Shown: positions 30,338 through 52,126 of the stretch, piece by piece
How the letters are laid out: each line of letters starts with the position of its first letter
Numbering within the stretch: position 1 is the first letter of the stretch
From: Botryllus schlosseri
Lineage: Eukaryota
NCBI GenBank assembly: GCA_051294905.1
Contig: CM119372.1
Coordinates: 32,676,001-32,740,000, forward strand
Direction: 5' to 3'
Length of the DNA stretch: 64,000 nucleotides
The notes under the pieces: model-generated
What the model saw: only the letters and a program-made list of their open reading frames with translations
Told to the model about the DNA's origin: nothing
Database searches by the model: none
Program-made: the position numbers and the translations under genes

Positions 30338-31119
30338 AGTAGTTATGTAGATCGGTCGCGAACGGCTATTGGTTCTTATGGGCGGGGTGGTGACTCGTAT
30401 TGAAACCGGGGGTGGTGATTCGTACTTTCAGACCCCCCTCTCGGCCGTGATTCGTAATGGGTTCTTATGGACGCGGTGGTGAGTCGTACTTTTGGGTATA
30501 GGCTGCGGCGGTGACTCGTATTGAAAACTCGTGGTCGTGAGTCGTACTTTTGGGTATAGGCTGCGGCGGTGACTCGTATTGAAAACTCGTGGTCGTGATT
30601 CGTACTTTCGGGTATAGGCTGCGGCGGTGAATCGTATTGAAATACTCGTGTTGGTAAGTCGTAATTTCAGGTATAGACTGTGGCAGTGATTCACCTGTCG
30701 TGTATTCTTACGGGATCTGTGGTGACTCGCCATGTGTTCTTATGGGTGCGGTCGTGATTCGTACTTTCAGGCATCTCTCGTGCGGTGTTGAATATGTACG
30801 AGTCACCAACAATAACCGCACAAACGGAAACGTGGCTTGCAAGAGGATTATTACGCAGTGCGTGCGACCTATATTCCGAATGACCTGCGCGCTGAATTAT
30901 TTCCCGTCCAGCTGTGTGCTACTATCGATTATTACACTAGACCAGTCAGTGCGAAATAGTTTGATCGTAAATTATGATATATGATGTCGTAGTTTAGTCG
31001 TGTCAAATGACCGATCGTGTTCTCTTTCCTCGCTATTGATTGCTACCTGAATAATACTTTCGGCTTATTCACACCGCTGTTTCGCGCCTACAGAATAGTC
31101 TGCTGTTCACAGTCGCAAC
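30338..31119 (+). repeat. Polinton left TIR (782 bp)
   Basis: Reverse complement of 51350-52126; internal array of GTGA(C/G/T)TCGTA-core units. Confidence 0.95.
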
Positions 31120-31250
31120 TTCATCGCGATAGCACAATTTTCACACCTCGATCAGTAGAACAACACCGCGCTAACCCAGTTGTCGAAACACATAGGTCAT
31201 ACATTTTACGTGAAAATGAAATATTGTATTGTGGTATACAAATATGCAAA

Positions 31251-31862
31251 CTATTCTTTCAATTCGACAAGTCTAGTTAACTGATCGATTTTCAATCTGC
31301 CGACACAGTTTTTAACACGAGTGAGTTGATATTTCTTCCCGGGTACGAGCGAGGCCTTGTTCCATCGATCCAACACCACCTCTCCGGTATCGTCTTTTAA
31401 TGTAAAACTGTATAATTTCAACTTCTTTCCGGCACCAGAATTGACCATCTTCTCCTCTCGAGAAACACAAGTAGCGGCGATCGATACGTATTCATCTTTA
31501 TTTCCGTATACCGATTCACAGATCAATAATGGGTATTCTTCAGTCGTATGTCTCGATTTTCCATGCAGAGTTACTGACGAAGCCCGTCCCAGTAATACAG
31601 CAGGTTTTCCAGTAAACTTGTCAATTTGGACCCAACCGGATTTGACCATGAGTTTTTTTCGTTTGGAGAATGCTTTCTCAATGACCCCGAACAATTCACG
31701 ATTGAAACACGTGAAAGATATCTCTTCGTTATTACTGTCGATGAATATACCTTTGAGATATTGACTAACGCCACCTCTTTTGGGTGATGAGACGAATTTG
31801 ACGCCGACGTGAAAATTTGAAACTGCTCCGACTTGCATACTGCTGACGCTGTTCGATGCCAT
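31251..31862 (-). CDS. Tandem OB-fold, RPA/SSB-like ssDNA-binding protein (putative)
   Basis: Two beta-rich repeats, YLKGIFIDSNNEEISFTCF and YSFTLKDDTGEVVLDRW, resemble the RPA1 L.D.TG.I..T.(F/W) motif; intact ORF. Confidence 0.6.
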   Translation of the reverse strand: MASNSVSSMQVGAVSNFHVGVKFVSSPKRGGVSQYLKGIFIDSNNEEISFTCFNRELFGVIEKAFSKRKKLMVKSGWVQIDKFTGKPAVLLGRASSVTLHGKSRHTTEEYPLLICESVYGNKDEYVSIAATCVSREEKMVNSGAGKKLKLYSFTLKDDTGEVVLDRWNKASLVPGKKYQLTRVKNCVGRLKIDQLTRLVELKE

Positions 31863-32024
31863 ATCGTTTGGTAAAGTGAGAGTCATCAACAAATCCGTCG
31901 ATATTTATAGAATTAGGTGCGTGGTATTGAGTGAGTTAACAGTCTTTGTATAATCCTGATGACCCGCGTGAATAGACTTGGATTGAAATAAACTTTACAG
32001 GAGTTCTGTAAGAAAGGATACCGT

Positions 32025-32378
32025 TCACAAGTACCAAACGACACGAATGAATTTTCTTCTTACCCAGTCACTTATCAATGTACTGTAGTGAGTATTCAAG
32101 ATGTCTGTTGCTAAATCTCTGTACGTCGCTAGGGTGCGTATGTCACTTTTCATCGCCGCAATGCTTATGACACTAAAAACCCCATTCCAGTCGATGTCGT
32201 ATGATCGAATCGAGTTAACCAATGCGGTAAAATCACACTTTCGAACACGGTTCACGTTTTGTCCATGTACATAGAAATCTAGTATCTTATGGATGGATTT
32301 TTCCGTTTCGCTCAAGGCGGGGGTAGTCAAATTATGATAGTACAGAAGGTAATTCTCAATAATCGCGCTAGTTGCCAT
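32025..32378 (-). CDS. Polinton hypothetical protein, 117 aa
   Basis: ATG-initiated intact ORF inside the element; no family recognised. Confidence 0.5.
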   Translation of the reverse strand: MATSAIIENYLLYYHNLTTPALSETEKSIHKILDFYVHGQNVNRVRKCDFTALVNSIRSYDIDWNGVFSVISIAAMKSDIRTLATYRDLATDILNTHYSTLISDWVRRKFIRVVWYL

Positions 32379-32415
32379 AACGAGTATATGTAACTATCAA
32401 CTGAAAAAGTAAACC

Positions 32416-32658
32416 ATGAGAATGTCACCACAATGTGTTAAAATGGTGAAATACACCGCTCAGATTTCGAAAAAACAGATGTTGGCGGGTGCGTTTGACA
32501 TGTGTGACACAATAAAATCGCCCGTTTCGCTAAACAGGAAATTCATAAAGCGCAGTGTGCTGTGCGATTTTGAAAAATCAGATATCTGTAGCGACGTTTT
32601 GATCTGTGACACACTAAATACGTCCGGTTCTGAAAGTCGGAAACGCGATCGGATCTGA
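32416..32658 (+). CDS. Polinton hypothetical protein, 80 aa
   Basis: ATG ORF divergent from 32378; no family recognised. Confidence 0.3.
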   Translation: MRMSPQCVKMVKYTAQISKKQMLAGAFDMCDTIKSPVSLNRKFIKRSVLCDFEKSDICSDVLICDTLNTSGSESRKRDRI

Positions 32659-32838
32659 GGATTACGCAGTGTGCGTGCGGTCTATATTTCGAATGACCTG
32701 CGCACCGAATTATTTTCCATCCAACCGCGTGCTACTATCGAATTAAATCTATAAATAGCCAACACCGCGATCCGGTTGTTATACTTCGCTGTTGCAGACA
32801 TAAACGCTGGTTGGAGCAGTTAGATTAATTATTATACA

Positions 32839-33696
32839 ATGGCCGAGGTTCAGATAGATAATCTTGACAAATTTGGTTATGAACCAAATGCATTCGAATC
32901 GCAATTTGAAGAGAACGCGGATATCTTTGATGCGATTAATCCTGGTGATCTGATGACGCCGGATTTAAGAGTTGAATCCGCAGAACGCGACCTTACGGCA
33001 ACGATCGAAATGCAGTCAAACTATACAGATATAGCGCGCCAGGCGTGGCTGAAGTCGGGTCAACTAGCTAGAGAAAGCGCGATTAACGATCTCACGAACT
33101 TGGTGACGATACCGTGTGTACCGATCGATGAGACAGCCGTTAGCAACGAATTACCGAATCCCGAGAAACCGTCGACTTCTGGGATGACGATACCGCGCCC
33201 CGCGGGGTCGCTATCGACGACTGATTTATTCCTAAATCTGTATCAACCGGCAAGCCAACTCGAAAAAGAACCACATCGACAACGGCGGGCATACCACCGG
33301 CTAAACAGCTTCGTAATGGAAAATCGAAAAATTTGAATCGTACCGAACCCAGACAGAAGATTGGTAAGAAACCTGTGAAATCTAAAAGCGCGCGTGAAGG
33401 GAAAAAAGAAGCAGGAAGAAAAGTTATGTCAATACACAGTTGACAAGATGGTCACCTACCTCCAGACTATTGACGTTGTTAAGCCGCATTTAGGTTCAAT
33501 ACTATGTTATGTTGATTCGTTGACGGAGAAAAAAAATTTGACTGTCACAAAGCTCATGGCTGACATCAAACGATTGCTTACTGTCAAGGGTCAGCGTTGG
33601 AGTCTTGATGAGATTCAACCTGAATTAAATACCGCAACCAATGAGTACTTGCATCGACTTCTGGAAATTAGAACAAAATTGAAGTATAATTTGTGA
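32839..33696 (+). pseudogene. Polinton hypothetical protein with acidic N-terminus, basic linker and helical C-terminus; apparently frameshifted
   Basis: TATAAATA at ~32750 upstream. ORFs 32839-33336 and 33394-33696 are bridged by an alternative frame TSTTAGIPPAKQLRNGKSK...KKPVKSK. Confidence 0.5.
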
Positions 33697-34299
33697 TTGT
33701 GCTGAATGATTTTCATTGTTGTGAGTGTCTATTCTCAATTTCTGTTTTCCGTTTCAGATTTTACATTAGAGTCATAAATAAACAATAGATTCTAAAAGCG
33801 CAACCACTAGTGGTGCTGGCGCTCTTGTAATCTCGAATCAGCGGTTTGGGTCTTTCTCTCTGGGTGTCGAGTAGCGAACAACGTGGCTGACTGTCTGGGT
33901 ATATTCGACTGCGATTGGTGGATAAGGAGTTAATTAGTAAGTTATTCGGTACGATTACTTTGATTTATGAATATAATTTGTTATTTATTTATCCGCCAGA
34001 CAAAACAAGCGCGGGATTAAAGAATTGAAACGGTGAGATATTACTGTTCAGAATGATAGGAGTGTGATGTAACGATTTTGTTGTTGAACAGACAGAGCAA
34101 ACTCAAGGATTAATAACAACAGCCAAGTCTACTGGTAAGTTATCTGCTATAACACAACGTTAGTGGACATAGATTGATGTGTTACTTGTTTTATTAAGCA
34201 TAAAGAATCGAAGACACCAACAAAGAAACTAGAATGTAAGTGAGACCAGTTTCATGTTCGCCAAGTGCTGAATTTGACCACGTGTTATTAATTTTACAG

Positions 34300-37200
34300 A
34301 TGAGTCGACGCAGACGGAATCGTGTTCGCGAAGAACCGAATGCACCACCAGAGATTGGCGACGAACGCCAAGAAGTTGTAAATCAGAACTGGCAAGCGAT
34401 AAAATCGTATGTAGTGAAAAAGACCAGTCATGTGTATAATATTCGAGTTATCGATCGTGAGCTAACGGATGTTTACCGCGATATCCAAGCGATATTTTTC
34501 TCCGAGTCACATACCTTTAAAGTGAACTACGCACATGCCTTCATTTTATATCACACTGAGACTCTGAGATTTCGGTATTTTCATGCTTCGGCAAACATCG
34601 ATAGTGTATTAGAAACACCAGCGCTAATTTCAACACTATCTGAATTTGATGAATTCGTTGAATCTATTCACCTGGAAACCGCACTTGATTTGTTACAAAA
34701 CTCTCGAGCAGATACAAAGTCACTGCCAGTCTGTCTGACTAATGTCCAGTTTTATGTATACCCTACGAGTCATTTACTGATTGGTTGTGGTGGTATTAAG
34801 CTACCAATGTGGCTTGCGAAATCGAAATGCATCTTGACATTTACCCATCAAAAAAATCGAAATCGATACAGAGACAATCTGTGCGCTTTTCGCTGTATCG
34901 CTCACTCACTAGGAAAAGACACCAAAGATTTAGCTCAACAATTCACTTCGGTGTATGGCATCAGTGTAGAATCCGGTGTGACTCTCGACATGCTGAATGA
35001 TATCGAGGTCTTGTTTAATGTGGCCATATTTGTATACACCAAGACTGATGGTGAAGCTGTCGCGCTCCGTCGTAGTACGTTTGAAGCGAAACCTGTGTAT
35101 TTACATCTAGAACATGCACACTTCTGTCTCATTTCTGATATGAGGTGATATATAGAGACCTATAAATGTGATGTTTGCCAACGATTATTTGATGAACAAT
35201 ATGATTTGACCAGACACAAATGTGTAACGGGTCCCGTTGAAGTGTTCCCGGGTGGTGTGTATACACCTCCTCTGAACATCTTTGAAAAACTTGATCTAGT
35301 AGGGGTGTTCGTTCCTCACCGACTTCGTTATTTCAAATACCGTATCGCGTTCAGTATAGAGAGTGTGTATGATACCTCAAAAACTTTGCGAGAGCGCCAG
35401 AACATCCCCATCTCTGTTAGCATATCGTCTAATGTGGAAGGTTACTTGGAGTCGCATGTAATTGTCTCGAGTGGTGATACAAACGATTTATGCGCACAAA
35501 TGATTGATCATTTTCACGATATTCAAAGTGAATCATTCAGACTGTCACTCACAGAATATCGACCCTACCTGGACATGCTCAAATCGAAAATTACCGAAAT
35601 GAAAGTGCTCGATCCTTCAAAACACCCAATACCCCTTGAACGTTTACAAGTGGAGTTTATGAGTTATTTGCGTCAAATCCCTGTTTTGTCGTTCAATGGT
35701 GATCGATATGACTTGAACTGGCTCAAAGCGTACTTGTTTGGTTTTCTCGTTGACGACAATCTTAGTGTACTGAAACGCGGTAACAAATTTCTCACAATGA
35801 CGACCAACAGACTTCAATTCTTGGACATTGTGAATTAATTGGCACCCGGGTTCTCGTATGATTCATATTTGGAAGCCATCAAATGTAGCACCGCTAAAGC
35901 TCACTTTCCGTACCAGTTTCTGACTAGTTTGAAAAAGTTGGATAACTCGAGTCTACCAAGCCACGACGAGTTTTACAACCCACTAAAAGGTTGTAATATA
36001 TCCACAGCTGAATATGAAAACTGTTTGAAGGTTTGGAACGACAACAAAATGACCTCTCTGCGTGATTATCTCAAATGGTGCAACGCGAACGATACTCACT
36101 ACTTCATAGAGGTTTTAGAAGAACAATTCCAATCATTCAAAAGTCAATTCAATGTTGATATATTCAAGGATGCGGTCTGCCTGCTCGGGGTTGTATCGAG
36201 GCATCTTTTTAACAGCATCCCGCGTGATTTCACAATGTTCAACGACAAACACCAGGATCTGGTTTCGCTATTCAGAGACAATTTAGTGCGTGGACCATCG
36301 ATCATTTTCCATCGATACCCAAAACCGGGTGTAACTCGAATCAAAGAACATGTCTATAAGGAAAATACACAGATTGCACAACATATAACAAGTTTGACCA
36401 GCGACTCGCTCTATCAGTATGCTTTAAGTCGACCAAGTCCAACTGGATTTGCGATACGTTGGCAACCAATCGACCCCGAGTGTACAAAATTCAAACCTGT
36501 CAAGACCGCGCCGAAATGCTCAGAGACTGTAACCCAGTGGATGAATTGGTATTCCCATATTCATAAGGTTCATGTTCACCACGCTTTTAACGGACCTGAA
36601 ATTCATGTGGGTGTGCGCAATTATCGACCTGATGGGTTTTATAGTAATTCGGCCGGACAAGGGATAATCTTATCATTCCTTAGATGTGATTTTCACGCCC
36701 ACGATTGCAGATTCGGATGTGATGACCCAGTACGTCGAGAGCGAGCTAAACGCATTCATGATTATTACGAAAGTCTAAATTATCGAGTTGTATGTAAATG
36801 GGAATGTGAGTGGAATATTGAGAAGAGAAATCCTCATATTGTGCGATATCTCGATGGTATTCAACTATAGAGTATGACTGGAGTGACGACTCGATTGTTC
36901 TCCCATTGTTAGCCGGCAGAATGGTCACGGTCAGATGGCTGCACCCAAAACAGGATCGCTCAGTGCTTGTTTATATGGCGTTCAAGGCGATTCGTCGTGT
37001 ATTTCTTGAAGCTGCGTCGGATTTAGTTAGACAGTTCAACATTTAGGTAGCGGTGGCGAGTCGTTATGACTAGGGAATAATACCGTGTAGCCTCTGTTAT
37101 ATTTTTCGCCAGAATTAGATCATACTTCGTCACGCATAGAGTCGGTATCATGGCTGATTCGGCCGCATCACTTTGGCCTTTGGGGATGGCTGGGAGGGAT

Positions 37201-40200
37201 TAACTGAAATGGAAATTGAAGAATGTTTCGAAGGACTCAATAACTGGAAAGGTGTGTTTTGTAAGGAATGCGAAGCATCCTTTCCTACTGTGAAAGCTTT
37301 GAAGAAACATTACAAAAATCATAAAGTTCTCGCCAGTAATTGGAATATATCTGAGGATGCTGTAATTGCTGTTTTAAAGAGGTTTTGTGTAAATAGCAAA
37401 AAATACTTTGAATGCGCCCCATCATTCGAGGAACTAGACATGACCAAAGCTGTTCCATTGGTGGAAAAACTCCATTCTGAATATTGTAAACTTGGTATTG
37501 ACGGATTTTATCAACATTATTCTAGTATCTGCCTTTGAGCTAAGAAGTTTTTGGGTTTGCCACAATTGCCAGCTTCAGCCTTACTTTTGAAGATTTTTGA
37601 TTCTCTCGTCTGCGGTAAAGAACAGCATCCAATCACATAGATTGGAGGAGTCAACAGCTAGGAATGTGGTAAGTAAATAGCCTATACTTTGCCTTTCCAT
37701 GGAAAAACTTTGACGTGTTTTTAGACATACTTGAATATATTGGTAGAGTGCTTTTGGGAGCCATTTCTAAGCAAGCCAACGAAGCAATTGCCACCTACCT
37801 AGCAACTGCAGCGCCATCGGGAAACCTCATTAAAGTGATGCAGAATAAAGACGGTGGATTGAAGAGCCCGTCTGAACAGTTTCATGGCATGGTTCTCCGC
37901 TTATATGTTAACCACAGTGTAAAGAAATGACAAATCCCATGAAAAATATAATTTTTTCAGGGTACTTGAGGCAATTCAATGTCATCCATTCTATAACAAA
38001 TTGATTCATACTGTATCACTTCAATCTGGTTCAGACGTAAATGAGGTTGAGGATGTCATGGACAAGGCAATGAAACACTTGAATAACATCTGTTCTCACA
38101 ATTTTGCGATGTTTGCATTGCATGAGAAGCAGAAAAAGTCTTCCACATTTTCCAAATGTTTGCGAGATAGCTTGAAAAAAGCAGGGGTGTCAAAGATACG
38201 GCCCGCCAGACGATTTCATCCGGCCCGCGAAGCAATTCTGAGTAGAGTGAAATATTCTTATATTTTCCAGCATATCTGTTACAAATGTTGAGATTTTTGG
38301 CAGGAATTACTTCCATGTTCATAGGTCCCATTATAACCCCCCCCTCCGACTATATGTGGCTCCACTCTAGTTACCACTAGTAACAAGTCGGTGAAATTTA
38401 CATCAAATTTCAAGAAGGCCAAAAGTGAACACTAAGTTCAGAGTTCTATACAAATATGAACCAAGAACATGGTCAAGCTGACAATTCGGCTTTTGAATGG
38501 TGTTATGGAATCAGTATCTTTCAGAGTCCTAACACAAGATGTTCTGGAAGCACCATTTGGATCTTTGATAACTTCAGTTGACAGTCATTAATATTATTCA
38601 CGAATGTTAACCTGAATTAATGATTGCCTTTTTAACTGCGGTCTTCGATGAGATACAGCAGGAATCCAGATATTAGCCAAGTCAGTTACTCAGTGAATGC
38701 CTTATGCCAGGGTAAGGCCATAAAGAGAGGGAAGGGTGCCGATACAACATATGCCTATGGTGATCAAAAGTCTGCCAGGAACCCATGACCAAGAAAAGAT
38801 TCAGCAAATGAAGCTAATGTAGTTTCTGGTAGTGTTAGTATGGTCGTTTTTTCTCTCTGTGGAAAATGCTGCCTATCCACATTCCCTACCTAAAAAAGGA
38901 AACCAATGCGTTGGTCGAAACCTTGACGTGGTGCATTGGCTTTCTACTAATGTCGACCAGAAGAGGTTTTCCAAGCGAATTCCAGGTTATTCTACTATTT
39001 TTGGTAATGCCAACGAGTTCCATTCAAGTGCGTTTTTGCATACTTCCAAGGAGTAAGCTCTGACTATTGTGAATTGAGATCAAGCAGAACATTAACATTA
39101 CACGAGGCTCTGGTTCTAGTCATCCTCAAGTTTCTGCGGTTATCGAACAGGCATACAAGACTATTGCGATGTTATTTGTTATATTCATACTTGAATTTCT
39201 GCAGTTAATATTGGACATACTTTCAATCAAAGATATTGTGAACTGCATATCGATATAGTTCAAGATCTTTCTTCTTGTTCACTTTGTAGTATTCTTCGGT
39301 CGTCCTTTCCATGAATTCGTCTCACACTAGCCAATGCACACGAACCAGATATTCTATATACCTTCTGTCTTTATATTTAAATACGTAGCAAACTCTGTAA
39401 AGGATCAAAGCCAGAATATCACTTAAATCTCGTGAGAAATGTAACATAGGTTACACGGTAATATTCACTAGTCATAACGACTCGCCACCGCTACCTAAAT
39501 GTTGAACTGTCCAACTAAATCCGACGCAACTTCAAGAAATACACGACGAATCGCCTTTGAACGCCATATAAACAAACACTGAGCGATAGTGTTTTGGGTG
39601 CAGCCATCTGACCGTGACCATTCTGCCGGCTAACAATGGGAGAACAATCGAGTCGTCACTCCAGTCATACTCCATAATTCAACCACAACTGACTCGTGCC
39701 AAGTCTGTCACCCCACAGAAATTGATGGAGATGGTGATGAATGGTACTTTCTTTGGTTGTTTGCTGGTTGATATTTGTACACGACCACATACACGATATT
39801 CAAAAATACCACAGTGTCTCGCGATACCGTGAAAAGTGACATGAATCAGCTTGCTGTAGATCGGAAATCACCCAGTAAACCCACTGACATGTTGGTTGCG
39901 TCGTACTGCGGTAAGAAAATCTTGCTAACCTCCGACTTGATCAAATGGTATGTAGATCACGGATTGGTGGTATCAAAAATTCATGAGGCTGTCGAATTCA
40001 CAAAAAGACATGTTTTGACAACTTTGCGAAAAATTTCTCAGACTGTCGACGTGCTGGGGATCGCGATCCTAACATGGAGATTATTGGGCTAACGCAAAAA
40101 CTCGCTGCGAATTCTTGTTATGATCGCGAGTTAATGAATCCGCGTAAACTCGAACAAACCACGTTCTGTGATAAAAGTGAATTGAACGCAAATGTGGAGG

Positions 40201-40689
40201 ATCGCTTTTTCGTCAAGTGTGAACAATTAAACACAGATCTATTTGAAATAACGAAGAGCCCTCAAAAGATCGAGCAAGATAACTGCATTCAAGTATCGTT
40301 CTGGATGTATTATAATGTCAAATTACGGATGTTGTCGTTTTTTTTATGACTGTTTATGCAAATATTTTCGCGCTGACTGCTTCATGCTACTTTCGGTGGA
40401 TATCAACTCGTTTTTCATCGCACATTCAGCACCACTCGATGACATTCTCATCCCCGAGAAAAGGCATGAATTTTACTGCGATTACGAGAACTGGTTTCCG
40501 CGTTATTTTTGCGATGACCATCGAAACGAATTCTTGACTGACCCGGCTTCTTTTGACCACTCGAGGCAGTGCTGTAAAGATACGTATGCTCATTATCTTC
40601 ATCAACCTGGTTTGATGGAAGTGAGATACGACGCCGATGCATCTTTCAGTGGTCTCAATCACTTTCACAGCGATCCAAAAAAACATTAA
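34300..40689 (+). pseudogene. Protein-primed family B DNA polymerase (pPolB) with embedded Vsr-like nuclease domain; disrupted
   Basis: Motifs DNLCAFRCIA, SFNGDRYD, FPYQF, RGPSIIFHR, SDSLY, FFGCLLVDI, KLAANSCY, VDINS. In-frame stops at 35146 and 35836, insertion 36866-39676, several frameshifts in 39780-40350. Confidence 0.9.
36866..39676. mobile_element. P-element-like DNA transposon inserted in pPolB
   Basis: ~240-bp TIRs (TATAGAGTATGACTGG...CCAGTCATACTCCATA) and 7-bp TSD ATTCAAC. Internal fragments: C2H2 finger (ORF 37173-37538), EYIG...GGLKSPS, RVLTQDVLEAPFGSL at 38523. Confidence 0.8.
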
Positions 40690-41310
40690 TCACGGCATTG
40701 AATGTTATTGCGGTGTACTTGTATATATTTTGTGTGACTTTAATTTATTTGTATATACTGTGTGTTTGATGTGATTTATTTGTATTGTGTGTTCATGTAT
40801 CATTTGTTTTCCAGATCGATAACACTATTACCTATCTAAAGTCTATCATGTCATTATATTTAAATAGTTTACATGTAGAGATGATTACCTTGGAGTGGGA
40901 ATTACCACAGTTCATGATTCTTGGTTTTACCAAACATTCCCCAACGTCGATGATACCCGATTGATGAAAAAGCAGATCACCAAAACTTGTGCTCCGTGGT
41001 GAGGTCTATAGTTTGTTATCGAAACACTATATTTTAAAGCGCTATGAACGTACATTATGAATCCTCTAATGTGATTTATTATTTTGCAGATTGGGATCAG
41101 CTGCTTGACGACCTGAAGCATTCGTAACACTACAACTTCCACCGATGATGAGGAACAGATGAAGATTTCATAACCAGTGGAAAATTGTTAAATCGAGCTC
41201 TACTGGGGTTATATATTCCACTAGAACAAGATGACTACAACAGTGGATATTCCAACCTTGTTGATATATAAACACATACACTTTATCGAGTTTTCAATAA
41301 ACAACAAACG

Positions 41311-41919
41311 ATGGAATTGATCCACCCATTCGCGTGTATTGTGAGTGGTCCTTCAAGAAGTGGGAAGACTACTTTTGTTGCAAAGCTGATTAGGCATGCC
41401 ACATCAATGATTAAACCAAGTGTATCCAGGGTCGTATATTGTTACAATAATTATCAGGAAGTTTTCAAGACGATGCATAATGTAGAATTTCACGCCGGTC
41501 TAGATATTTTAGAAGAGTTGAAGGTTTGCTTTGAAGACACCTTGATTATAGTGGATGATTTCATGGCTGAGACCGCGAAAATTGCAGACTACTTTACAAG
41601 ATTTTCACATCATTCGGCCAATTCAATTTGCTATATCACGCAGAACCTGTATCACAAGGGTAAAGGAGCACGTGACTTGAGTCTTTCAAGCTCGTATATG
41701 GTGATTTTCAAGAATCCGCGCGATCAACAACAGATCAGTTTTCTTGGTCGACAAATGTACCCAAACTCTAGATTTTTAACAGAGGCTTATCGTGACGCTG
41801 CTGGGCAACCTCATAGTTATTTATTCCTTGATCTCACGCAAGAAGCACCTGAAAATCGACGAGTTATGACCAATATATTTCCTGGTGAAACCATGGTGGT
41901 TTATAGCCCGATGGTATAA
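41311..41919 (+). CDS. Genome-packaging ATPase (A32-like, FtsK-HerA superfamily)
   Basis: Walker A GPSRSGKT, Walker B LIIVDD, ITQNLY, FKNPRD; intact. Confidence 0.92.
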   Translation: MELIHPFACIVSGPSRSGKTTFVAKLIRHATSMIKPSVSRVVYCYNNYQEVFKTMHNVEFHAGLDILEELKVCFEDTLIIVDDFMAETAKIADYFTRFSHHSANSICYITQNLYHKGKGARDLSLSSSYMVIFKNPRDQQQISFLGRQMYPNSRFLTEAYRDAAGQPHSYLFLDLTQEAPENRRVMTNIFPGETMVVYSPMV

Positions 41920-41952
41920 ATAGCCAAGCGCAGAGACGACTTTAAACTCAAA

Positions 41953-42300
41953 ATGACCAAGGTACCAGCTCGGACACGACGGCATATACCCACACTAGAG
42001 TTCCTACATAAAAGTAAACCCGAGATACGCAAGCAAATTATATCGGGAGCCAGCAAAGAATTTATCGAGTGTATATGCGATTGTACAAAGAACATTTTAA
42101 ACGGCAACATCCCTCTTTCAAAGTATAAAAGAAAGCGACTATCAGTTCATAAATGTAGTTTACGTCGACTTGTCAGGAAAGACATCCCTATTCGACATAA
42201 GAAACGTATGGTTAATCAGAATGGGGGTATGTTTATGACTCTATTATCAAGCATCCTACCCGTCGTCACTGGTTTACTCGGTAATCTTTTCAAAAAATGA
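41953..42300 (+). CDS. Basic Polinton core protein with C-terminal amphipathic helix
   Basis: K/R-rich; QNGG followed by MFMTLLSSILPVVTGLLGNLF. Confidence 0.7.
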   Translation: MTKVPARTRRHIPTLEFLHKSKPEIRKQIISGASKEFIECICDCTKNILNGNIPLSKYKRKRLSVHKCSLRRLVRKDIPIRHKKRMVNQNGGMFMTLLSSILPVVTGLLGNLFKK

Positions 42301-42692
42301 CTTCTTTTAAAAAAATCTTCATAAATCCGAATCCGATCAACGAGGTTGAAGTTCAGAAATTGAATTTGGATATCGACAAATGTATGAGCGACATATTACA
42401 GATGAACATACCCCAAGAACGAAAATTAGCCTTATATAACGACGCACTAAATCGTTATCAAACAAAACACGACACACTGAATCAACAGATGAAAATCGAT
42501 ATATCAGAACAAAGGAATCTATTTTCGGCTAGTGAGTTGGACGCACTGCGACGCCTGATCAAGGGTGAACCATCAAGGATTCCTATACCATCACCGAGTA
42601 GCCAACGAAGCAAAGTAAAGACTCAGCATGCCCCGACGAAGAGCGGTCGTACACCCAAGACCCCGAGACGATACGGATGGGAGCCGTACTAA
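42297..42692 (+). CDS. Polinton protein of unknown function upstream of the integrase
   Basis: DKCMSDIL...ERKLALYNDALNRY pattern; ATGA overlap with the previous gene. Confidence 0.6.
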   Translation: MTSFKKIFINPNPINEVEVQKLNLDIDKCMSDILQMNIPQERKLALYNDALNRYQTKHDTLNQQMKIDISEQRNLFSASELDALRRLIKGEPSRIPIPSPSSQRSKVKTQHAPTKSGRTPKTPRRYGWEPY

Positions 42693-43698
42693 GTATTTCA
42701 CGCCAGGGCTACCTGGTAGTTACCGCGGTGCATACGTATTCTCTAGAGGGCGGAATAGAGCCAAAGTCAAGGAGTTTCTTTCGAGCAAGGACGCGTACAC
42801 AAAACATTTTCCCTATCGAAAGAAATTTAAGAGACCTAGAGTGATTACGTCCGGTCTTGGTGTTCAGTATCAAACCGATCTCATGCATATGCAAAACCTT
42901 TCAAAAGAAAACGACAATTTTAAATATGTGTTGGTGACGATCGATTGTTTCAGTCGATTTTTATATCTGTATCCACTCAAGAACAAAACCTCGCATGGTA
43001 TTATTCGCGGATTCAAGGAAATATTTAAGGATCGTATACCTCATGTTATTCAAAGTGATCAGGGTTCCGAGTTTACTAACCGTGCGTTTCAGACTTTCTT
43101 AAAATGTAACAATGTGCGACATTTTCATACAGATAGTGAACTGAAAGCATCGATATGCGAGCGTGTTATTCGTACTCTGAAGCAGGTATTATACCGCTAT
43201 TTCACGCATAATAAGACTTTGAATTATGTCAATGTCCTGTCTGAGATATGCCAAGGGTATAACACTACTTTTCACGTGGCTATAGGGTGACCTCCAGCGG
43301 ATGTTAATTATTCAAATCAAGAACAAATTTTCCATAGGTTATACGGTGACATGACCCCTAAAAAACCCAAACTAACTATTGGCACACCAGTCAGGATTTC
43401 GAAATCGCGTGGTAATTTTGTAAAAAGTGCCTTGGCAAGTTGGACCGAAGAAATCTTTTTCGTATCTCAATGTCGTAAAGGTGACCCTCCTACTTATCAG
43501 TTGAAAGACTACCATGGTGAAGTTATAGACGGTAGATTTCAACGCGAAGAGTTACAACCAATAACTAAAAATAATAATATTTACAATATCGAAAAAATCC
43601 TGTCTACTCGCAAGAAAGGAAAGAAAACGCAATATCTTGTAAAATGGTTGGGTTACCCGTCTAAATTGAATTCCTGGGTCTCGGATTTGTATAAATAG
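42628..43698 (+). pseudogene. Retroviral-like DDE integrase with C-terminal chromodomain; one in-frame TGA
   Basis: YQTDLMHM, IQSDQGSEF, KASICERVIRTLK; TGA at 43288-43290, then same-frame YNIEKIL...YLVKWLGYP...NSWV. Confidence 0.93.
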
Positions 43699-43707
43699 AC
43701 GCTGAAA

Positions 43708-43941
43708 ATGTTGTTCAACCAAACTATGGATTCTGATTCCGTCTCATCTCGCATGGGTCAAGTCTCGAACAGTCTGAAAAACCAGATTGCGTTTATTGTA
43801 CAGATTTGTATGTTAGTGTGTGTAATCGTGTTTTCATTATATCACATTTCTGTCGGGGTGGATCGTGAAATATATTTAACGCTACTGTCTTCTTCACTTG
43901 GGTATTTATTACCGAATCCATCACCTCACCGTATATGTTGA
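43708..43941 (+). CDS. Small Polinton membrane protein
   Basis: Hydrophobic IAFIVQICMLVCVIVFSLY and IYLTLLSSSLGYLLPNP. Confidence 0.6.
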   Translation: MLFNQTMDSDSVSSRMGQVSNSLKNQIAFIVQICMLVCVIVFSLYHISVGVDREIYLTLLSSSLGYLLPNPSPHRIC

Positions 43942-44698
43942 AAGAAACAATAAAATGTTGTTGACTCTACCTTCGAATGCGAGTTTGGATAAATTTCCGA
44001 ATACTAGCACAGATTTTCAAACGGAACTTTACAAAGAATTAGAAATGAATCGCCATGAGCTAGGATTATGTGAGCTGACCTTCCCCCATGATTTTCAGCC
44101 GCGAATTGAAGTGACAGCGAAAAGTATCGGTTTTGGATTTGTCGATGCGAATGGATACACCGAACGGTATTATATTCCCGAAGGCTCGTATTACAGCATC
44201 GGTGAAATGTTAGAATCGTACGAGAAATATTACATGGGGGACATTTTCATTTTACGAGGATTCGGTGACTTTAGAATCACATTCAGAAGATTAGTCACGA
44301 GTAAAAAAAGACACAAGCGAGCTGCATCCATAAATACCGATACCGCAGACTCTAGCGCCAAACACATACCCCGTACCACGCATGACTCACCCGAGCCTTA
44401 CGGACTGATACCGCTAGGTTCTGTGTTGGACACAATAACATTTAGACGCGTTGTATCTCGTCGCCGCGGAGTGGTAGAATTTATATTTACACCTGCGATA
44501 AAGTTGGAACGGATTGATAAGGTTTATGTGTATTGCGATCTGATACAACCAAGACCACATGGTAACAAGCTGCAACAACTTTTACGGGTGGTTACTGTAA
44601 CCGCTAAACCGAATGAAAACCAAATCAACATATTCCCAAAACCATACTTCTTTGCTTTAGCGAGAAACAATTTTAGAACAATACGAATTTATCTACGT

Positions 44699-46169
44699 CA
44701 GTGGTTCTTAACCTTGCCTCCAGCGCCCCCCAAGGGGCGCTGGCGATTTTGAAGGGGGCGGAAACGCTCAGGGGGCGATATGGGGGGCGCTGGGCTCAGG
44801 GGGGCGATATGGGGGGCGCTGGAGAAAAATGGCTTCGCAGTAGATGATGTGGTAGTAGGACATATCCTTAATGAGTATTCAGAGCGAATTAACACTGAAA
44901 ACTTCGTTATATATAGCCTACAAAAGGCATATAGGTTTAATTGTCCATGGGCGCCTATAAATGACTGGCACCGAATGTTTCTGTCTTGGCAATCTGAACC
45001 TCAGAAGACGAATTCCATCTGGCTGGGAAAAATTATATGCCAGTGAAGAAATACCAATTTGAAATCGTGTGCGTCTTTTAGTTTAGTACGATTGGGCGAC
45101 AGGGATATATAGAACTAGATATCCCTGTTGGGCGATATCCCTGTTGGGTGATTCTATATTTTTTGATATAGCAGACAGGAGGTCACGAAATAACATTATG
45201 CAACGAAGTCATACCAACGGGTCCGCTCGCCCGAATATGTTTAATTATTAGTTACGGCCCCTACAGTTTCCAAGATACCTCACAATGTTCCCTTTACGTT
45301 TTGACGAGTCTGCGCACACCCACTAACTCACTGCGCAGACCCTTGAACAACAGTGCGTAACGACTAAAAAAAGGTCATAACTTCGGATTTGTTGGGCGTA
45401 ACGTAGATTTTCTGTGCGCAGAGACCGTGTCAGCACTGCGCACGTGCGCAGCTTAGAGGGAACATTGCACCTCACTCAGCTCTACCGGTAAATCTGGTAA
45501 CGTGAGCAGAGAGGACAAGAAATTGATAGCAATAAATGCAATTCCCTATCTTACTGACCGATTTTATCATGAATTATCGAAAGTTTTCGCGCTTCGCACT
45601 GGCTCGCTAAACAGTACAGCTGATTTCGTGGCAAAAGCGAACAACGTGATGGGTCGGTTTATCACCGTATGGGAGCCGAAGACCCAAGTTTTTTTCGGGG
45701 GCCCTGGCGAAGTGCCGTTTCGTTCCTGCCAACGGGTATACGCCCGAAGATGTATAATTATTATTGAGGGGTCCTACCTTTTCAATCACACATCACTCAG
45801 CTCTACCGGTAAATCTGATTACGTGGGCTGAGAGGATAAAAAGTTTATAGCGACATATATATGTAATTACCAACTATTCATTCATGCATTATAGAAAATT
45901 TTGGTACCTAGGGCGACCAGGCCACACAAACTTTGCTGACCATCGAAATCACGCTACGGGGTTCTTGGGAGCGAAGCCATCAGAAGTTTGGTTTCTCATG
46001 CTATAGGTGCGCAAGGCAATCGTTTTTAGGGGGGTTGACGAAGTGCTGTTACGGCCCTCCCTCTTACTCATTGTCTTTATTACATTCCTTACAATATGAG
46101 GTTGGGGGGCGCTGGAGCACGATAATTTTTGAAAGGGGGCGCTGGAGGAAAAAAGGTTAAGAACCACTG
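44699..46169. mobile_element. hAT-type non-autonomous element, 1471 bp
   Basis: CAGTGGTTCTTAACCTT...AAGGTTAAGAACCACTG; perfect TSD ATCTACGT. Confidence 0.92.
45100..45127. mobile_element. 28-bp palindromic micro-element
   Basis: CAGGGATATATAGAACTAGATATCCCTG flanked by perfect 8-bp TSD TTGGGCGA. Confidence 0.75.
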
Positions 46170-46260
46170 ATCTACGTGATGCAGCTGGCAACCCTATTAA
46201 ATTTCGAAAAGCACCAGTGACAGTAACCCTACGCTGCCGTCGTAGAGCTGTTGATTCAAT

Positions 46261-46932
46261 ATAAGTTACATCACGTTGTCTGGCACCCAAGGTGAATTCT
46301 CGGTGGTGTTACCGAATGAAATTATTTGTAATGAGCTTGCGTTAATGGATATGAGTTTTGTCAGTGAATCTCTTGATCGAATTATAATCAATCGTGATCA
46401 AGCACTCTGGGAGCTACATAACGAAAAAGATCGAGTAGTAGAAGCGTACCTAACACCACTTGGGAATTATGCAAACAACCTCGAGTTGATGCGAAGAATA
46501 TTATCAGACAGTTTCAAACACTGTTTCACCGAAAGAATCAACGATGAACTTTTCCGAATTCGTTACCCGAAACATATCACACTCCATCCCACGGATATAT
46601 TCACAAATTATTTCACTGTAGTTGATCAAGTGTCGACACCAGTATGTAATGTCTCGTCGATCAAATCTAAACCAACTCAACCCCACCTCAGATATCTATT
46701 TGTGTATATCAATGTACTACGACATCATCCGGTGGGTGATTACATGAGTCAATTGCTTCGTGTGATCCAAGTAAATAACGAGACGTGTATGAGACAAGAA
46801 GTTGTATTTGAAAAACCGTTCTATTTCCCAGTATCGATTAACCACATCCGCGATATAAAAATCACCATCAGGGACCAATACGGTCAGTTAGTATATGATA
46901 TAGAGACCACATTGACACTCCACGCGCGATGA
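46261..46932 (+). CDS. Minor capsid protein (penton) paralogue 2; start codon apparently mutated ATG>ATA
   Basis: ELALMDMSF, YLFVYINV...VGDYMSQLLRVI, YFPV, ITIRDQYG. Confidence 0.75.
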   Translation: MSYITLSGTQGEFSVVLPNEIICNELALMDMSFVSESLDRIIINRDQALWELHNEKDRVVEAYLTPLGNYANNLELMRRILSDSFKHCFTERINDELFRIRYPKHITLHPTDIFTNYFTVVDQVSTPVCNVSSIKSKPTQPHLRYLFVYINVLRHHPVGDYMSQLLRVIQVNNETCMRQEVVFEKPFYFPVSINHIRDIKITIRDQYGQLVYDIETTLTLHAR

Positions 46933-47324
46933 AAATAGTGATGTTAACCACCTCTATGCTTGGTACTGATTTTGAACACAGACTACTCACCATCAACAAC
47001 ATCCCGACGAGATATTGCGAATTAGCCCTCATGGAGATCGATTTCACTTTAACCGAACCGGCGATTGGTCAATATTTGTTTGTGTATTGCGATATTATTC
47101 ACCCTCACTTACTTGGAGATACGTTAGCGAATTTATTACGAGTTATACCGCTGACACCCGGCGATGTCGCACATAATTGGATAGCGACAAATCCGTATTA
47201 TTTCCCTGTTTCAAAAGATGTTGTAGATTCTGTCTGTCTTTACCTCAGGGATGAGTTTGGGAAGCCTATAAATATAATAAGTCGTTCATTGCAAGCTACA
47301 TTTAACATTAGGAAGCGATTATGA
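46929..47324 (+). CDS. Minor capsid protein (penton) paralogue 3, minimal 131 aa
   Basis: ELALMEIDF, YLFVYCDII...LGDTLANLLRVI, YYFPV, LYLRDEFG. Confidence 0.8.
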   Translation: MKIVMLTTSMLGTDFEHRLLTINNIPTRYCELALMEIDFTLTEPAIGQYLFVYCDIIHPHLLGDTLANLLRVIPLTPGDVAHNWIATNPYYFPVSKDVVDSVCLYLRDEFGKPINIISRSLQATFNIRKRL

Positions 47325-47692
47325 AAGTTGTTTTCACGTGTGATCATCATTCTGTCCATCGTCATTATAACCAGACAGGCGATGGTTATGGATATTTTAG
47401 TGGTGGAGTTCAAGCCGGTTCCGGTATCGGGAGTTTGTTTAAATCACTTGGTCGTTTAGTGACACCTATTGCGAAATACGCTGGCGGTCAATTGTTACGG
47501 ACTGGAGGTGAAATAGCGAGAGATCTATTACGGGGTAACTCGATCAAGTCTAGTGTTGTCAAGAGAAGTAAACAAGCTGGCGGTCGAGTGATTGATAAAA
47601 TTTTAACCCCAAAAGCTATAAAAAGGAAAAAAACAAAGTCAAAGAACACTTCATCCAAACGTCGTCGTAAACAACAGGATATATTCGACTAA
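47321..47692 (+). CDS. Polinton core protein (adenovirus pVI/pVII-like architecture)
   Basis: QTGDG and QAGSG motifs, then amphipathic IGSLFKSLGRLVTPIAK and a basic NLS-like tail. Confidence 0.7.
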   Translation: MKVVFTCDHHSVHRHYNQTGDGYGYFSGGVQAGSGIGSLFKSLGRLVTPIAKYAGGQLLRTGGEIARDLLRGNSIKSSVVKRSKQAGGRVIDKILTPKAIKRKKTKSKNTSSKRRRKQQDIFD

Positions 47693-47697
47693 GAACT

Positions 47698-50600
47698 ATG
47701 TTGATGCATGCGGGTTCCCGAGAATGTCATAACTCCGGATTAAACATATTTAGTATACCCCACACGCAAACCAGTATTGAAGAATCGCAATATGTCGTCG
47801 TCAAACCCCATAGTTTAGGTAATGTCATGGAAGTACAATTACCGAGGACGGATCGATATATGGATCTACAAAACACATTCTTGAGATTACGTTTGAAGCT
47901 CACTAAACGCGATGGATCTGATTTAGCAAACGATACACAAGTGGGTCTTGTCAATAACATGATGGATTCTCTTTTCAAACAAATCGATGTAACTATTTCA
48001 AATGAGGTTATCACAAATTCGGATAATTGTCATGCCTACAAAGCTTATATCGCTCGGTTGTTGAATGATACTCACGGTGCCTCGGAGAGTTTTGTGCAAG
48101 GACAAGTATTTTATAAAGATGTCGCTGGCTCTATGGATGTTCTTGGTGCAGCGAATACTGGATATGTTAAACGAAAAGACCTTACCAAAAACAGCACCCC
48201 GCTAGTGTTGATCGGAAAAATTCGAATGGGTCTTTTTGAACAGTCTAGATCAGTGGTTCTCAACCTTTTTTACCCGCGGACTCATCTCAAGCTCGCCAGT
48301 ATACCCGCGGACTCAAGCTATATATTACTGAAAATTTTTTTTTTCTATCCGAGGGAGTGTAATACGGTATCAACAAAAAATGAGCTAAAATTGAGTCAAG
48401 GAAGCTTTCTTAAATCTGTCTTTCCACATCTGTCGGCTTTGCAATTCAAGCAACTATTCAGTAATGCAGACCACATCTCGAGTTCCACTTATATTAGACA
48501 ACTATAGACTGTTTCTGTGATTAGCACATGTCCCTACGATTTGTAATTTCCCAAATAGTCTGTAAGTGAACAAGTCGCCATAATCAATTACCAGCACTCA
48601 GCGTATATCGCGCCGGAAACCTGTGCAATGTGCCTACGTGCAGGGCCGTAACAGCACTTCGTCAGCCCCCCTCAATAACAAAACGTTGGTCTTGGGCCAC
48701 ACAGGCCTTAAACCTAACTTCTGGTGGGCTTCAACCCCAGACCCCCCTTCCGATAATTTTTCTAAAAAGTTGCATAAATTTTCAAAAAACACTCTATAAT
48801 TTATGTTAATTCACGAATAATTTTGGCCCCCCTTCGAGGTCCCCCCCTCAATTATGGGGGTTTGGTGTACGGCAGTTACGGTCCCGCATACGTGTGTAGT
48901 GTATAAAGAGCTGTTTATACCTGGCATATTCTGTATGTGAATTGTTAATAGTGAACACGCGGCATTAAATTCCGAGTCCGGTCGTACTAAATTCAAGTGA
49001 ATCCGACCAAAATTGTAGAGTTTATGACCGTGATAAAATTGCTTATGACAATTTTAGCAATAGGCTATACCTCGAACATAAATGTAGGGCATTTTGAAAA
49101 ATTCCAGTTGGCGATAATTGGGGTTTTATACCTGGCGTGATTGGTATCAAACCAGGATGATGCGACAGATGTGCAAAGCATACCCGTTTTGCCTGTGATA
49201 CTTGCAACCAACTGGTTTGCCCAAGACACAGAAAATCTCAGGAGAACCAATAATGCTTGGAATGCTGATCAATTTGTAGTGGTGCTGTTTCGTTGTTCTT
49301 GCGTTTGAAATATACGTGGCCAAACATCGCTTATTGAGGTATCTCTAATATTGCTTCCAAAACTACATTCACTGCAGTATAATTTATTAACTTGCAGGAA
49401 TTTCGTATGCCCCTTATCAACAAGAGGTAACGGTACAATAAGAAGCATATAGAAAGAGATTCAAACAAAATCCAAATTGGCAAAATATGACGTAACAAGG
49501 GAATGATAAAAAGGAACGGTAGCTGGCCAAAGTCAGCTGTACCGGTACTCCGGTAGTCATAATAAAGGGATAATAGAGAATCAAATTATACGATACTCAG
49601 AAGACGTTACACAGACAATTAGCGGAATATATTAATGGAATATTGAAAGATTGTATACAAACTCTTTAGCCTTTGTATGGTGCCGTTAATTCTTGATAAG
49701 GGAAACCCGAAAAGTCACCGAGGTAATAAATTCTACTGCAATGAATGTAGTTCTGAAAGCACTATTGAAGTTGAGTGCCGCCAGTCACATATTTGAGGTA
49801 TCTATGCATTTTTTATGACAGCTATTAAGGTTACTAACATTTCAAAATAGGTATTTTGCAAATCACTCAGCCTAATCCTCAAATCGGAATTTGACGAAAC
49901 CGGACCAGGACGGGGCTCATTCACTTTCGGACCAAAAAGCTATTTTTTCCGTAAGGCTGCAATGACTTTGGTCCGAAAGTGAACGAGCCCCGTAGGTCTG
50001 TCAATTACATGTTCCGAAATCATATCGGAAGTGGAAGAAAAAGTGTGCCGAGCCGATTGAGTTACTGAAAATTCCTGTGTTCGCGGACTCACCAAGGACC
50101 TTCCGCGGACTCAAATGAGTCCGCGGACTCGGGGTTGGGAAACACTGGTCTAGATGTATGTTGGATAATGTCGACATGAAACTAAAATTTACACATAACG
50201 AAGATAATTTCTGTCTTCTCGGTGACGCGGAGGATGTACAAATTGTTTTACTCGAAATGGAGGTGTATGTCAAACAGATGAAGATCGCTGAAAGTGTAAG
50301 CCTAGCACACAAGTCTGTACTACAGAAGAATACTGCCAAGTATCCCTGGATACGCTTACAAATGTCGACTCATACATTCGCCGCGGGTTTGTCGAAAATT
50401 GATAGAGAGTTAGTTAGCGGCACCATGCCAAAGAAGATCGTAATTGGTTTAGTCGAGACCACGACATTTAACGGTGTTCGAGCCAAAAATCCATTCAACT
50501 TTAAACACTTGATGTTCAAAATCTTTCGTTAAGTGTGGACGGGCGTCAAATTAACGGACGCGAATTTCATTTCGATTTTGATAAACATGGCGGACTCGAA

Positions 50601-50873
50601 GGTTATATGACACTATTCTCTCAGACAGGTCGCTGGGAATCCGAGGCACCTTTAAATATTTCTCGCGAAGATTATGTCAATGGGTACACTCTTTTTGTGT
50701 TTGATTTGACACCTGATAATAGTTTGGGATGTTATCAACTTCATAAGACAGGAACTGTGCATCTGGTTTTGACTACGTCGAAGCCTTTACCAACCTCCGT
50801 AACCTTGTTATGTTTGAAGGAGTTTCAACATCTTCTACAACTGAATCAAAAAAGACAAGTCGTCGAAATATGA
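47698..50873 (+). pseudogene. Major capsid protein (double jelly-roll); MITE-interrupted and frameshifted
   Basis: LNIFSIPHTQTSI, YMDLQNTFL, SLFKQIDV, NPFNFKH, GYTLFVFDLTPD. Removing 48251-50155 restores EQSR|CMLDNVD; 1-nt deletion near 50508. Confidence 0.9.
48251..50147. mobile_element. hAT-type non-autonomous element, 1897 bp
   Basis: CAGTGGTTCTCAACC...GGTTGGGAAACACTG; perfect TSD GTCTAGAT. Confidence 0.92.
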
Positions 50874-51313
50874 ATACGTCTGAGATCGATGATATTCTCT
50901 ATAACCACCCTGACACACAAAGTCTATATCTAGGAACTTATCCAGTAGATCAGTTACCGAAGAAACCAACTAGCGGAAAATTCGCTATCACCATTAATTA
51001 CGATGAGTCGAGTTTGCCTGGGTCTCACTGGGTGTCTATATACAGAGATGACGATACTCATTTTCATGATTCGCTAGGCTTCGGACCACTAAAACCTCAG
51101 ATAATCGAATTCCTGGAGCCGGATGAATTTTCTGTGACTGGGAAACAGTTACAGAGTAAAACTTCAGATGTGTGTGGACATCATGCTATAGCATTCTTGA
51201 TAAAAAGAGCTCAAGGGTTTTCAACCGAGGAATACTTGGATAATTTTGGCGATGATAAAAAAGTGAATGATACGATTGTACGTGCTTTTGTGAAGAGTTT
51301 GATTTCGGAGTAA
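50870..51313 (+). CDS. Adenain-like cysteine protease
   Basis: GSHWV (His), FHDSLG (Asp), LQSKTSDVCG (Gln/Cys); intact; AATAAA follows the stop. Confidence 0.92.
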   Translation: MNTSEIDDILYNHPDTQSLYLGTYPVDQLPKKPTSGKFAITINYDESSLPGSHWVSIYRDDDTHFHDSLGFGPLKPQIIEFLEPDEFSVTGKQLQSKTSDVCGHHAIAFLIKRAQGFSTEEYLDNFGDDKKVNDTIVRAFVKSLISE

Positions 51314-51349
51314 TAAACGAATGTGTAAATGTGTATACTTGTGATTCTT

Positions 51350-52126
51350 GTTGCGACTGTGAACAGCAGACTATTCTGTAGACGCGAAACAGCGAATAAG
51401 CCGAAAGTATTATTCAGGTAGCAATCAATAGCGAGGAAAGAGAAGACGATCGGTCATTTGTCACGACTAAACTACGACATCGTATATAATAATTTACGAT
51501 CAAACTATTTCGCACTGACTGGTCTAGTGTAATAATCGATAGTAGCACACAGCTGGACGGGAAATAATTCAGCGCGCAGGTCATTCGGAATATAGGTCGC
51601 ACGCACTGCGTAATAATCCTTTTGCAAGCCACGTTTCCGTTTGTGCGGTTATTGTTGGTGACTCGTACATATTCAACACCGCACGAGAGATGCCTGAAAG
51701 TACGAATCACGACCGCACCCATAAGAACACATGGCGAGTCACCACAGATCCCGTAAGAATACACGACAGGTAAATCACTGCCACAGTCTATACCTGAAAT
51801 TACGACTTACCAACACGAGTATTTCAATACGATTCACCGCCGCAGCCTATACCCGAAAGTACGAATCACGACCACGAGTTTTCAATACGAGTCACCGCCG
51901 CAGCCTATACCCAAAAGTACGACTCACGACCACGAGTTTTCAATACGAGTCACCGCCGCAGCCTATACCCAAAAGTACGACTCACCACCGCGTCCATAAG
52001 AACCCATTACGAATCACGGCCGAGAGGGGGGTCTGAAAGTACGAATCACCACCCCCGGTTTCAATACGAGTCACCACCCCGCCCATAAGAACCAATAGCC
52101 GTTCGCGACCGATCTACATAACTACT
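51350..52126 (-). repeat. Polinton right TIR (777 bp)
   Basis: Reverse complement of the left TIR, lacking its 5-bp ACACC. Confidence 0.95.

Follow-up and report, generated by a model that had tools for sequence, protein, structure and literature searches.

A Polinton/Maverick element in the genome of Botryllus schlosseri relies on the host splicing machinery for the message of its protein-primed family B DNA polymerase (pPolB). The polymerase gene is preceded by a leader with four short GT-AG introns, three of which are exactly removed in one of four sequencing runs (X3, whose status as RNA is a guess), and the comparison of copies indicates that all four are host-type introns whose splice sites are maintained by purifying selection. 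In our view it is very probable that these are real introns in a non-coding leader. As to how the message is made, we lean, with reserve, towards an arrangement in which pPolB is a downstream gene of an operon-like unit, with entry of the host spliced leader (SL) at position 33757, four cis-splices and a leader free of AUGs.

The Polinton element and its genes

The window, i.e. the whole stretch of 64,000 nucleotides analysed (contig CM119372.1, positions 32,676,001 to 32,740,000 of the forward strand), includes the following features, numbered from its first letter:

30338..52126, no strand, Polinton/Maverick element, about 15.6 kb of native sequence plus three insertions
32750..32757, + strand, TATA-like box TATAAATA before the upstream gene, proposed polycistronic promoter
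32839..33696, + strand, upstream gene, a single ORF of 292-293 aa in siblings, split by frameshifts in the window copy
34300..40689, + strand, pPolB gene (protein-primed family B DNA polymerase)
40813..40814, + strand, acceptor after the pPolB stop, whose equivalent in sibling L041 bears the host SL

The element is bounded by terminal inverted repeats of 733 nt (99%) at 30338-52126, with AGT...ACT termini and a 6-bp target duplication characteristic of Polintons/Mavericks, and encodes an integrase with an rve domain (PF00665, E 5e-16) plus a chromodomain. A P-loop ORF, the candidate packaging ATPase, gave AAA/helicase matches that are all weak, and Pfam searches returned no match for the candidate capsid/protease ORFs (423 and 167 aa), the upstream gene or a 182-aa ORF after pPolB. 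The upstream ORF shows no similarity to the N-terminus of the Styela homologue of the polymerase, and its identity with that region was ruled out. At the DNA level, the sibling search yielded at least 41 matches of 88-100% identity in the 40 of 150 candidates that were scored. The insertions (36866-39676, 44699-46169 and 48251-50147) are missing in 10/10 siblings and private to the window copy; the first has inverted ends of 141 nt and a zinc-finger ORF.

The ORF at 34300 is a protein-primed family B polymerase by homology: PF03175 is present in homologous proteins in 6 of 12 matches (E 4e-72), and homology to the first piece of the window's polymerase reaches E 2e-39. Direct Pfam and PDB searches with pPolB matched nothing relevant, and a search of viral contigs found no relatives. 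The window copy is disrupted by stops and by the insertion at 36866-39676, and in many siblings the frame is open for about 1200-1300 codons.

A non-coding leader with four short introns

The region between the upstream gene and pPolB is organized as follows:

33697..33757, + strand, U-rich spacer and unpaired acceptor (AG 33756-33757), candidate SL trans-splice site
33758..33936, + strand, leader exon 1, 179 nt (175-180 in copies), AUG-free in 31/32
33937..33999, + strand, intron 1, 63 nt, GTAAGT donor in 32/32, spliced joint in X3
34000..34032, + strand, micro-exon 2, 33 nt (33, 34 or 39 in copies)
34033..34091, + strand, intron 2, 59 nt, GT and AG in 32/32, splicing not seen
34092..34134, + strand, micro-exon 3, 43 nt (35-43 in copies)
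34135..34198, + strand, intron 3, 64 nt, spliced joint in X3
34199..34235, + strand, micro-exon 4, 37 nt (30-40 in copies)
34236..34299, + strand, intron 4, 64 nt, spliced joint in X3, AG adjoining the start codon

The original prediction had described introns of 63, 59, 64 and 64 nt with their donors and acceptors, micro-exons of 33, 43 and 37 nt, a last AG abutting the ATG and stops in all three frames of the joined micro-exons, and every one of these is in place (AG|ATG at 34299|34300; two stops per frame). To these we add the AUG-free exon 1 behind an invariant acceptor. A fixed intron rule finds four introns in 33759-34302, a number reached in 0 of 2000 dinucleotide shuffles, 7 of which contained three. 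The introns have only loose TRAY-like words as candidate branch points. Since 4 of 10 placed introns of host myosin genes are similarly short (57, 64, 66 and 67 nt), the uniform size of the leader introns matches that of short host introns and needs no special explanation. An origin of the array by tandem duplication is unproven: whole units 1-2 and 1-3 are alike (z 2.9 and 3.4), and the introns minus their splice signals are dissimilar (z up to 1.3). The idea of a structured leader was rejected on the folding of exon 1, which is not unusual (z -0.32, 33759-33936).

Conservation was assessed in 60 loci (partly the same places), of which 55 span the full leader, yielding 32 distinct copies; five loci were set aside, three with four donors spaced as in the other copies, one with only two such donors and one truncated. 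In the distinct copies the splice-site conservation that had been named as a check is complete (GT 128/128, AG 128/128), as is that of the pPolB ATG (32/32), with intron lengths of 57-68 nt. The 16 GT/AG columns are invariant, while 138 of the 327 remaining columns in introns and micro-exons vary; of the extended splice-site columns 4/36 are variable (Fisher p=2e-4, an optimistic value as the copies are related). The GT-AG ends together with the conserved extended donor consensus identify the introns as U2-type. The micro-exons behave quite differently: their diversity (0.104 in 26 distinct copies) is close to that of third codon positions (0.126) and unlike that of the first two (0.043), their lengths when added up belong to each of the three frame classes (18/12/2 of the 32 copies), and 1-3 stops in frame with pPolB occur in each of the 32 leaders. 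The leader is non-coding because its micro-exons thus drift neutrally with frameshifts and in-frame stops, and a coding N-terminal extension of pPolB was rejected on these grounds. Three of six more divergent leaders read open in frame, with an in-frame start codon shown in none of the six. A splice fusion of the upstream gene to pPolB was likewise rejected for the window subfamily, as exon 1 has stops in all frames.

A second regularity concerns start codons. All six ATGs in 33758-34299 are intronic or straddle a donor, and across copies every intron has at least one AUG inside it or across its start (128/128), while the spliced leader is AUG-free in 31/32 copies, compared with 4.7 AUGs expected and with 46 AUG-free leaders in 10000 shuffles. 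The front of the leader is equally constant: AG 33756-33757 is kept in 32/32 copies although it is unpaired, the sole nearby GT that could serve as its donor being deleted in 7/32, and the spacer before it (51% T in L041) lacks a strong donor.

Removal of three of the introns in run X3

Four sequencing runs were mapped on 8.6 kb of sibling L041, the candidate that most resembles the rest of the copies. In X3, which was labelled RNA by a tool's guess and in which each joint is represented by one contig at depth 4-5, joints at L041 5704>5768 (63 nt, depth 4.05), 5508>5573 (64 nt, depth 5.12) and 5407>5472 (64 nt, depth 5.12) correspond exactly to introns 1, 3 and 4, respectively. All three read CT..AC on the + strand of L041, and one contig spans micro-exon 4 whole between two joints (side 37). 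Spliced RNA had been named as a check of the prediction, and it was obtained for these three introns and not for intron 2, for which no joint is listed at L041 5608-5665 in the four runs. Run X1, deep over all 30 bins, lists none of the leader joints, and the raw RNA runs X18 and X22 (6% and 13% of reads) have a leader depth of at most 2 and no joint there. Taken together, conservation, frameshifts and three RNA joints bear out the claim of a spliced, multipartite, non-coding leader on pPolB.

Over the whole element and both strands the intron rule gives 13 rows, two of which are alternative donors for an acceptor already listed. Beyond the four leader introns, full sibling conservation is limited to two of them, the intron-like stretches 32008-32067 (+) and 50957-50910 (-), which are kept in 9/9 siblings and are both antisense to ORFs; no joint is listed for the former in the run mapping on L041, and the latter lies outside the stretch covered.

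Host spliced leader and a proposed operon-like organization

The two genes downstream of pPolB start with the host SL in L041. At the AG|ATG acceptors L041 813 and 1454, in two raw RNA runs from two studies, the SL appears as a loose end of reads, 78 and 15 in X18 (the 15 at L041:1454, equivalent to window 40813..40814) and 369 in X22. This loose 5' piece corresponds to the 'Chordata 1' spliced leader given in Table 1 of PMC3795323, which marks the host as a chordate that trans-splices. Its core occurs 410 times in the genome outside the element; among the sites inspected (L101-L115 of the 410 in G000) some are followed by GT and are candidate SL RNA genes, and others are orphan copies. A viral origin of the piece was rejected, as the full 30-mer has 0 genomic matches and the core is that of the published SL; the extra nucleotides ahead of the SL are presumably a template-switch tail. 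We take the 'Chordata 1' SL to belong to ascidians, which fits the existence of a Styela homologue of pPolB. In L041 the second small gene contains an intron of 80 nt (window 40999-41089) that is spliced in 4/4 runs, and its expression in X18 and X22 far exceeds that of every other part; the small-gene region L041:811-1454 corresponds in part to window 40813-41089.

Both SL acceptors share one anatomy, in which a gene's stop lies upstream and the U-rich spacer in between lacks a strong donor, and the front of the pPolB leader is built likewise, with the upstream stop at 33696, a 61-nt spacer and AG 33756-33757. In Ciona, according to the available part of PMC11155486, trans-splicing favours the first acceptor, weak paired donors and GU/AU-rich upstream RNA, and the anatomy at 33757 agrees with this first-acceptor rule. 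The unpaired acceptor at 33757 thus probably takes the SL for the pPolB message; as no SL read at 33757 is among the loose ends listed (24 of 471, with depth at most 2 in X18 and X22), we infer this use from its surroundings.

TATA-like boxes precede four genes of the element (32750, 41265 and 41915 on the + strand, 31909 on the - strand), the first being unchanged in 16/16 aligned copies; those at 32750 and 41915 have a 13-nt extended motif in common. No such box lies ahead of pPolB or of either SL-bearing gene, and a search for TATAWAW on the + strand from 32758 to 34300 gave zero matches. Under the operon-like arrangement, the transcription unit would begin at the TATA box at 32750 and comprise the upstream gene, the polymerase and the two small genes. 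SL trans-splicing at 33757 would free the pPolB message, and the four cis-splices would then produce a leader of about 290 nt plus the SL, with no AUG before 34300. Once the introns exist, their splice sites would be kept at least for the reason that a retained intron, or the loss of any site, would bring an AUG into the leader ahead of the start codon. Strong donors close behind the trans-splice acceptor may also help the host to treat a long gene without introns as one of its own, through the principles of exon definition and intron-mediated enhancement. Polymerase output would need five host splicing steps, whether or not these are used for regulation.

What doubt we have in this reading concerns SL entry and the single transcription unit. 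No polycistronic precursor is seen in the runs, which consist of contigs and short reads, and X18 and X22 contain scarcely any pPolB reads against abundant reads from the small downstream genes, so that a single unit would require selective decay. AUGs are, moreover, expected by chance in AT-rich introns of 60 nt.

Related subfamilies

In a sister subfamily of 63-65% protein identity, three introns of 68-75 nt are present in 8/8 intact loci (a ninth, L095, is partial), again with A-rich micro-exons and an array that ends at AG|ATG. When aligned to the window, its exon 1 scores z 5.1 and one intron z 4.7. Here 1-2 AUGs occur within exon 1 in 8/8 loci, whereas the middle intron is AUG-free. The proposal that the leader controls expression would hence agree with the AUG pattern of the window subfamily and disagree with that of the sister subfamily. 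Similarly, the AUG-containing mini-introns might act as a splicing gate, with polymerase produced solely in cells that remove all four and replication switched, by host or element, through intron retention (e.g. between germ line and soma); we think such a gate improbable, and the sister pattern implies that it is not general.

Two distant families (31-39% identity) lack the intron array in 6/6 loci; what precedes the polymerase in all six is a T-rich acceptor, placed at its start or slightly upstream of it. In the family at 39% identity (L091-L094) the upstream ORF ends in a stop that overlaps a GT, and the acceptor sits one base ahead of the ATG; cis-splicing would join the upstream ORF and the polymerase in frame, while trans-splicing would part them.

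Alternative explanations

The alternative that survives best, which we nevertheless consider unlikely, is that pPolB is a stand-alone gene with its own TATA-less promoter within 33758-33900 and that the four introns are plain 5'-UTR introns. The sequence blocks that exon 1 has in common with the sister subfamily could belong to such a promoter, and a start downstream of them would drop the upstream AUGs of the sister leaders; the strongly unlike RNA levels of pPolB and the downstream genes would be accounted for as well. The window copy also has an AATAAA at 33778, but a 4-nt deletion strikes this hexamer in 7/16 copies. Further points against a separate promoter are the absence of TATAWAW here as opposed to its presence at the four other genes, the invariance of the acceptor at 33757 despite its lack of a partner, and the behaviour of rearranged copies (76-80% identity), which keep the four introns behind other upstream sequence (6/6 leaders), and of several sublineages in which exon 1 is replaced and the introns stay (L065, L068 and L096-L100). 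A TATATT near 33900 is not the TATA box of the X3 transcript because its contig carries at least 33 nt of exon 1 ahead of donor 1.

It is quite unlikely, in our estimate, that the micro-exons are relics of coding exons, such as N-terminal zinc fingers, whose introns remain since their removal is still needed. Relatives at 30-33% identity do extend further at the N-terminus, by about 60 residues that carry C2H2-like motifs and lie ahead of the point matching the start of pPolB. No Cys/His pattern appears in in-frame readings of the micro-exons in either subfamily, however, and the absence of the array from the two distant families of this genome is consistent with its gain. Both this reading and the next are compatible with the operon-like arrangement, and a relic origin would agree with the non-coding role that the exons have at present.

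Still more doubtful is the possibility that the introns serve as camouflage against a host response that silences long transcripts lacking introns, whether HUSH-like or through small-RNA surveillance. The pPolB ORF runs intron-free for 3.6 kb, and the host has a gene (G000:C13:8717868-8718342; L116, L117) in which two exons match DUF3715 above the Pfam cut-off, a domain which we take to be linked to the HUSH subunit TASOR. As far as the available text of PMC8770142 goes, HUSH silences mobile DNA that lacks introns and the presence of introns is protective, but short introns give little or no protection and silencing is linked to an A-rich sense strand (ORF2, 41% A). The leader introns are short, and the pPolB ORF has 29% A; moreover, the distant families that lack the array still hold open polymerase frames.

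The analogy originally drawn with the adenovirus tripartite leader, i.e. a shared leader spliced onto several viral genes and boosting translation, is not supported, and we rate it as highly unlikely. Several short non-coding exons would suit it, and the element has further AG|ATG starts, but these bear the host SL. No joint from the leader donors to other genes is listed elsewhere in the 8.6 kb, a stretch of low depth that leaves the late genes outside; the integrase and the capsid-region ORFs have no AG|ATG starts, the exons drift neutrally, and the folding of exon 1 is ordinary. Finally, an origin of the X3 joints in a retro-processed copy at the DNA level or in an assembly error, with the introns unspliced, is extremely unlikely, for in spite of the guessed RNA status and the single contigs at depth 4-5 there are three exact GT-AG removals at the predicted places, an intron is absent from 0/55 full loci (the shortest being 57 nt), the depth of X3 climbs toward the 3' end of the gene as in poly(A) RNA, and a processed copy would itself presuppose spliced RNA.

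Comparison with known systems

The element resembles other Polintons/Mavericks in its inverted repeats, 6-bp target duplication, protein-primed polymerase, chromodomain integrase and candidate ATPase gene. In a nematode Maverick the core genes are described as intronless, with introns only in cargo genes (10.1101/2022.07.12.499685, available part), and GT-AG introns were not found in the PLVs of Oxyrrhis according to the portion available of PMC12721341. Here, in contrast, the polymerase gene has 3-4 spliceosomal introns, all in the untranslated leader.

With adenoviruses it shares short non-coding exons spliced ahead of a viral ORF. The leader exons of adenovirus E2B span kilobases and provide the first codons, and the tripartite leader raises translation by ribosome shunting. 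As stated in the accessible part of PMC7070027, the tripartite leader is common to all late mRNAs, and E2B, which encodes a related protein-primed polymerase, is transcribed from a promoter far away and accounts for very few of the reads. Unlike the tripartite leader, that of the Polinton serves one gene as far as is seen, adjoins it and has minimal introns.

Tunicate SL operons offer a closer parallel, with same-strand neighbours, downstream members that receive the host SL, and U-rich unpaired acceptors. Most Ciona operons have no intercistronic DNA, and in Oikopleura it measures 23-30 nt (PMC1488885, in the part available), whereas the spacers of the element are 61-112 nt, which counts against the operon-like reading. 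Spliced leaders are also found on about 30% of long reads from transposable elements in Hydra (10.1101/2024.03.13.584568, portion available). The present case differs in that the unit is a mobile virus-like element and that SL addition to pPolB is predicted. In the P element of Drosophila, too, the key enzyme of a DNA transposon needs intron removal by the host. Its regulated intron interrupts the ORF and its tissue-specific retention is proven; the Polinton introns, by contrast, lie in the leader, and regulation is here a candidate reading only.

Spliced viral leaders, tunicate operons and the SL on transposon transcripts are already known. The available parts of PMC12220804, PMC12721341 and 10.1101/2023.08.22.554363 make no mention of spliceosomal introns in polymerase leaders, and spliced or trans-spliced Polinton polymerase leaders were not found among the titles and abstract openings listed. 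The X3 joints give RNA support for the spliceosomal processing of a Polinton polymerase message.

The gene expression of Polintons is hardly known and their core genes had been described as intronless; introns of this kind escape ORF-based annotation because they are located in the leader. Their presence implies transcription in the nucleus with use of the cis- and probably the trans-splicing machinery of the host, and Polintons may thus be tied to hosts with compatible splicing. The spliced junctions also mark active transcription, since with dozens of copies present they set genuine polymerase mRNA apart from both DNA and read-through, and as specific markers they make it possible to address by RT-PCR when and where Polintons are active.

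Rearranged and mosaic copies

In a rearranged subfamily (L096-L099 and L049) a truncated polymerase start is accompanied by the post-polymerase spacer and by another leader with four introns. The L096-L099 copies join the upstream gene, in frame, to this truncated start (33058>34301 in window terms), a fusion also found in X1; as it lacks GT-AG ends, it reflects a DNA deletion and not splicing. The siblings L031-L050 are mosaic, the 3' end of pPolB and the next spacer occurring in two types, with about 76% versus 93% identity to the window, while their capsid-side halves are 95-97% alike. At 17000-20314 the window has a large inverted array of 41/65-nt satellite-like repeats.
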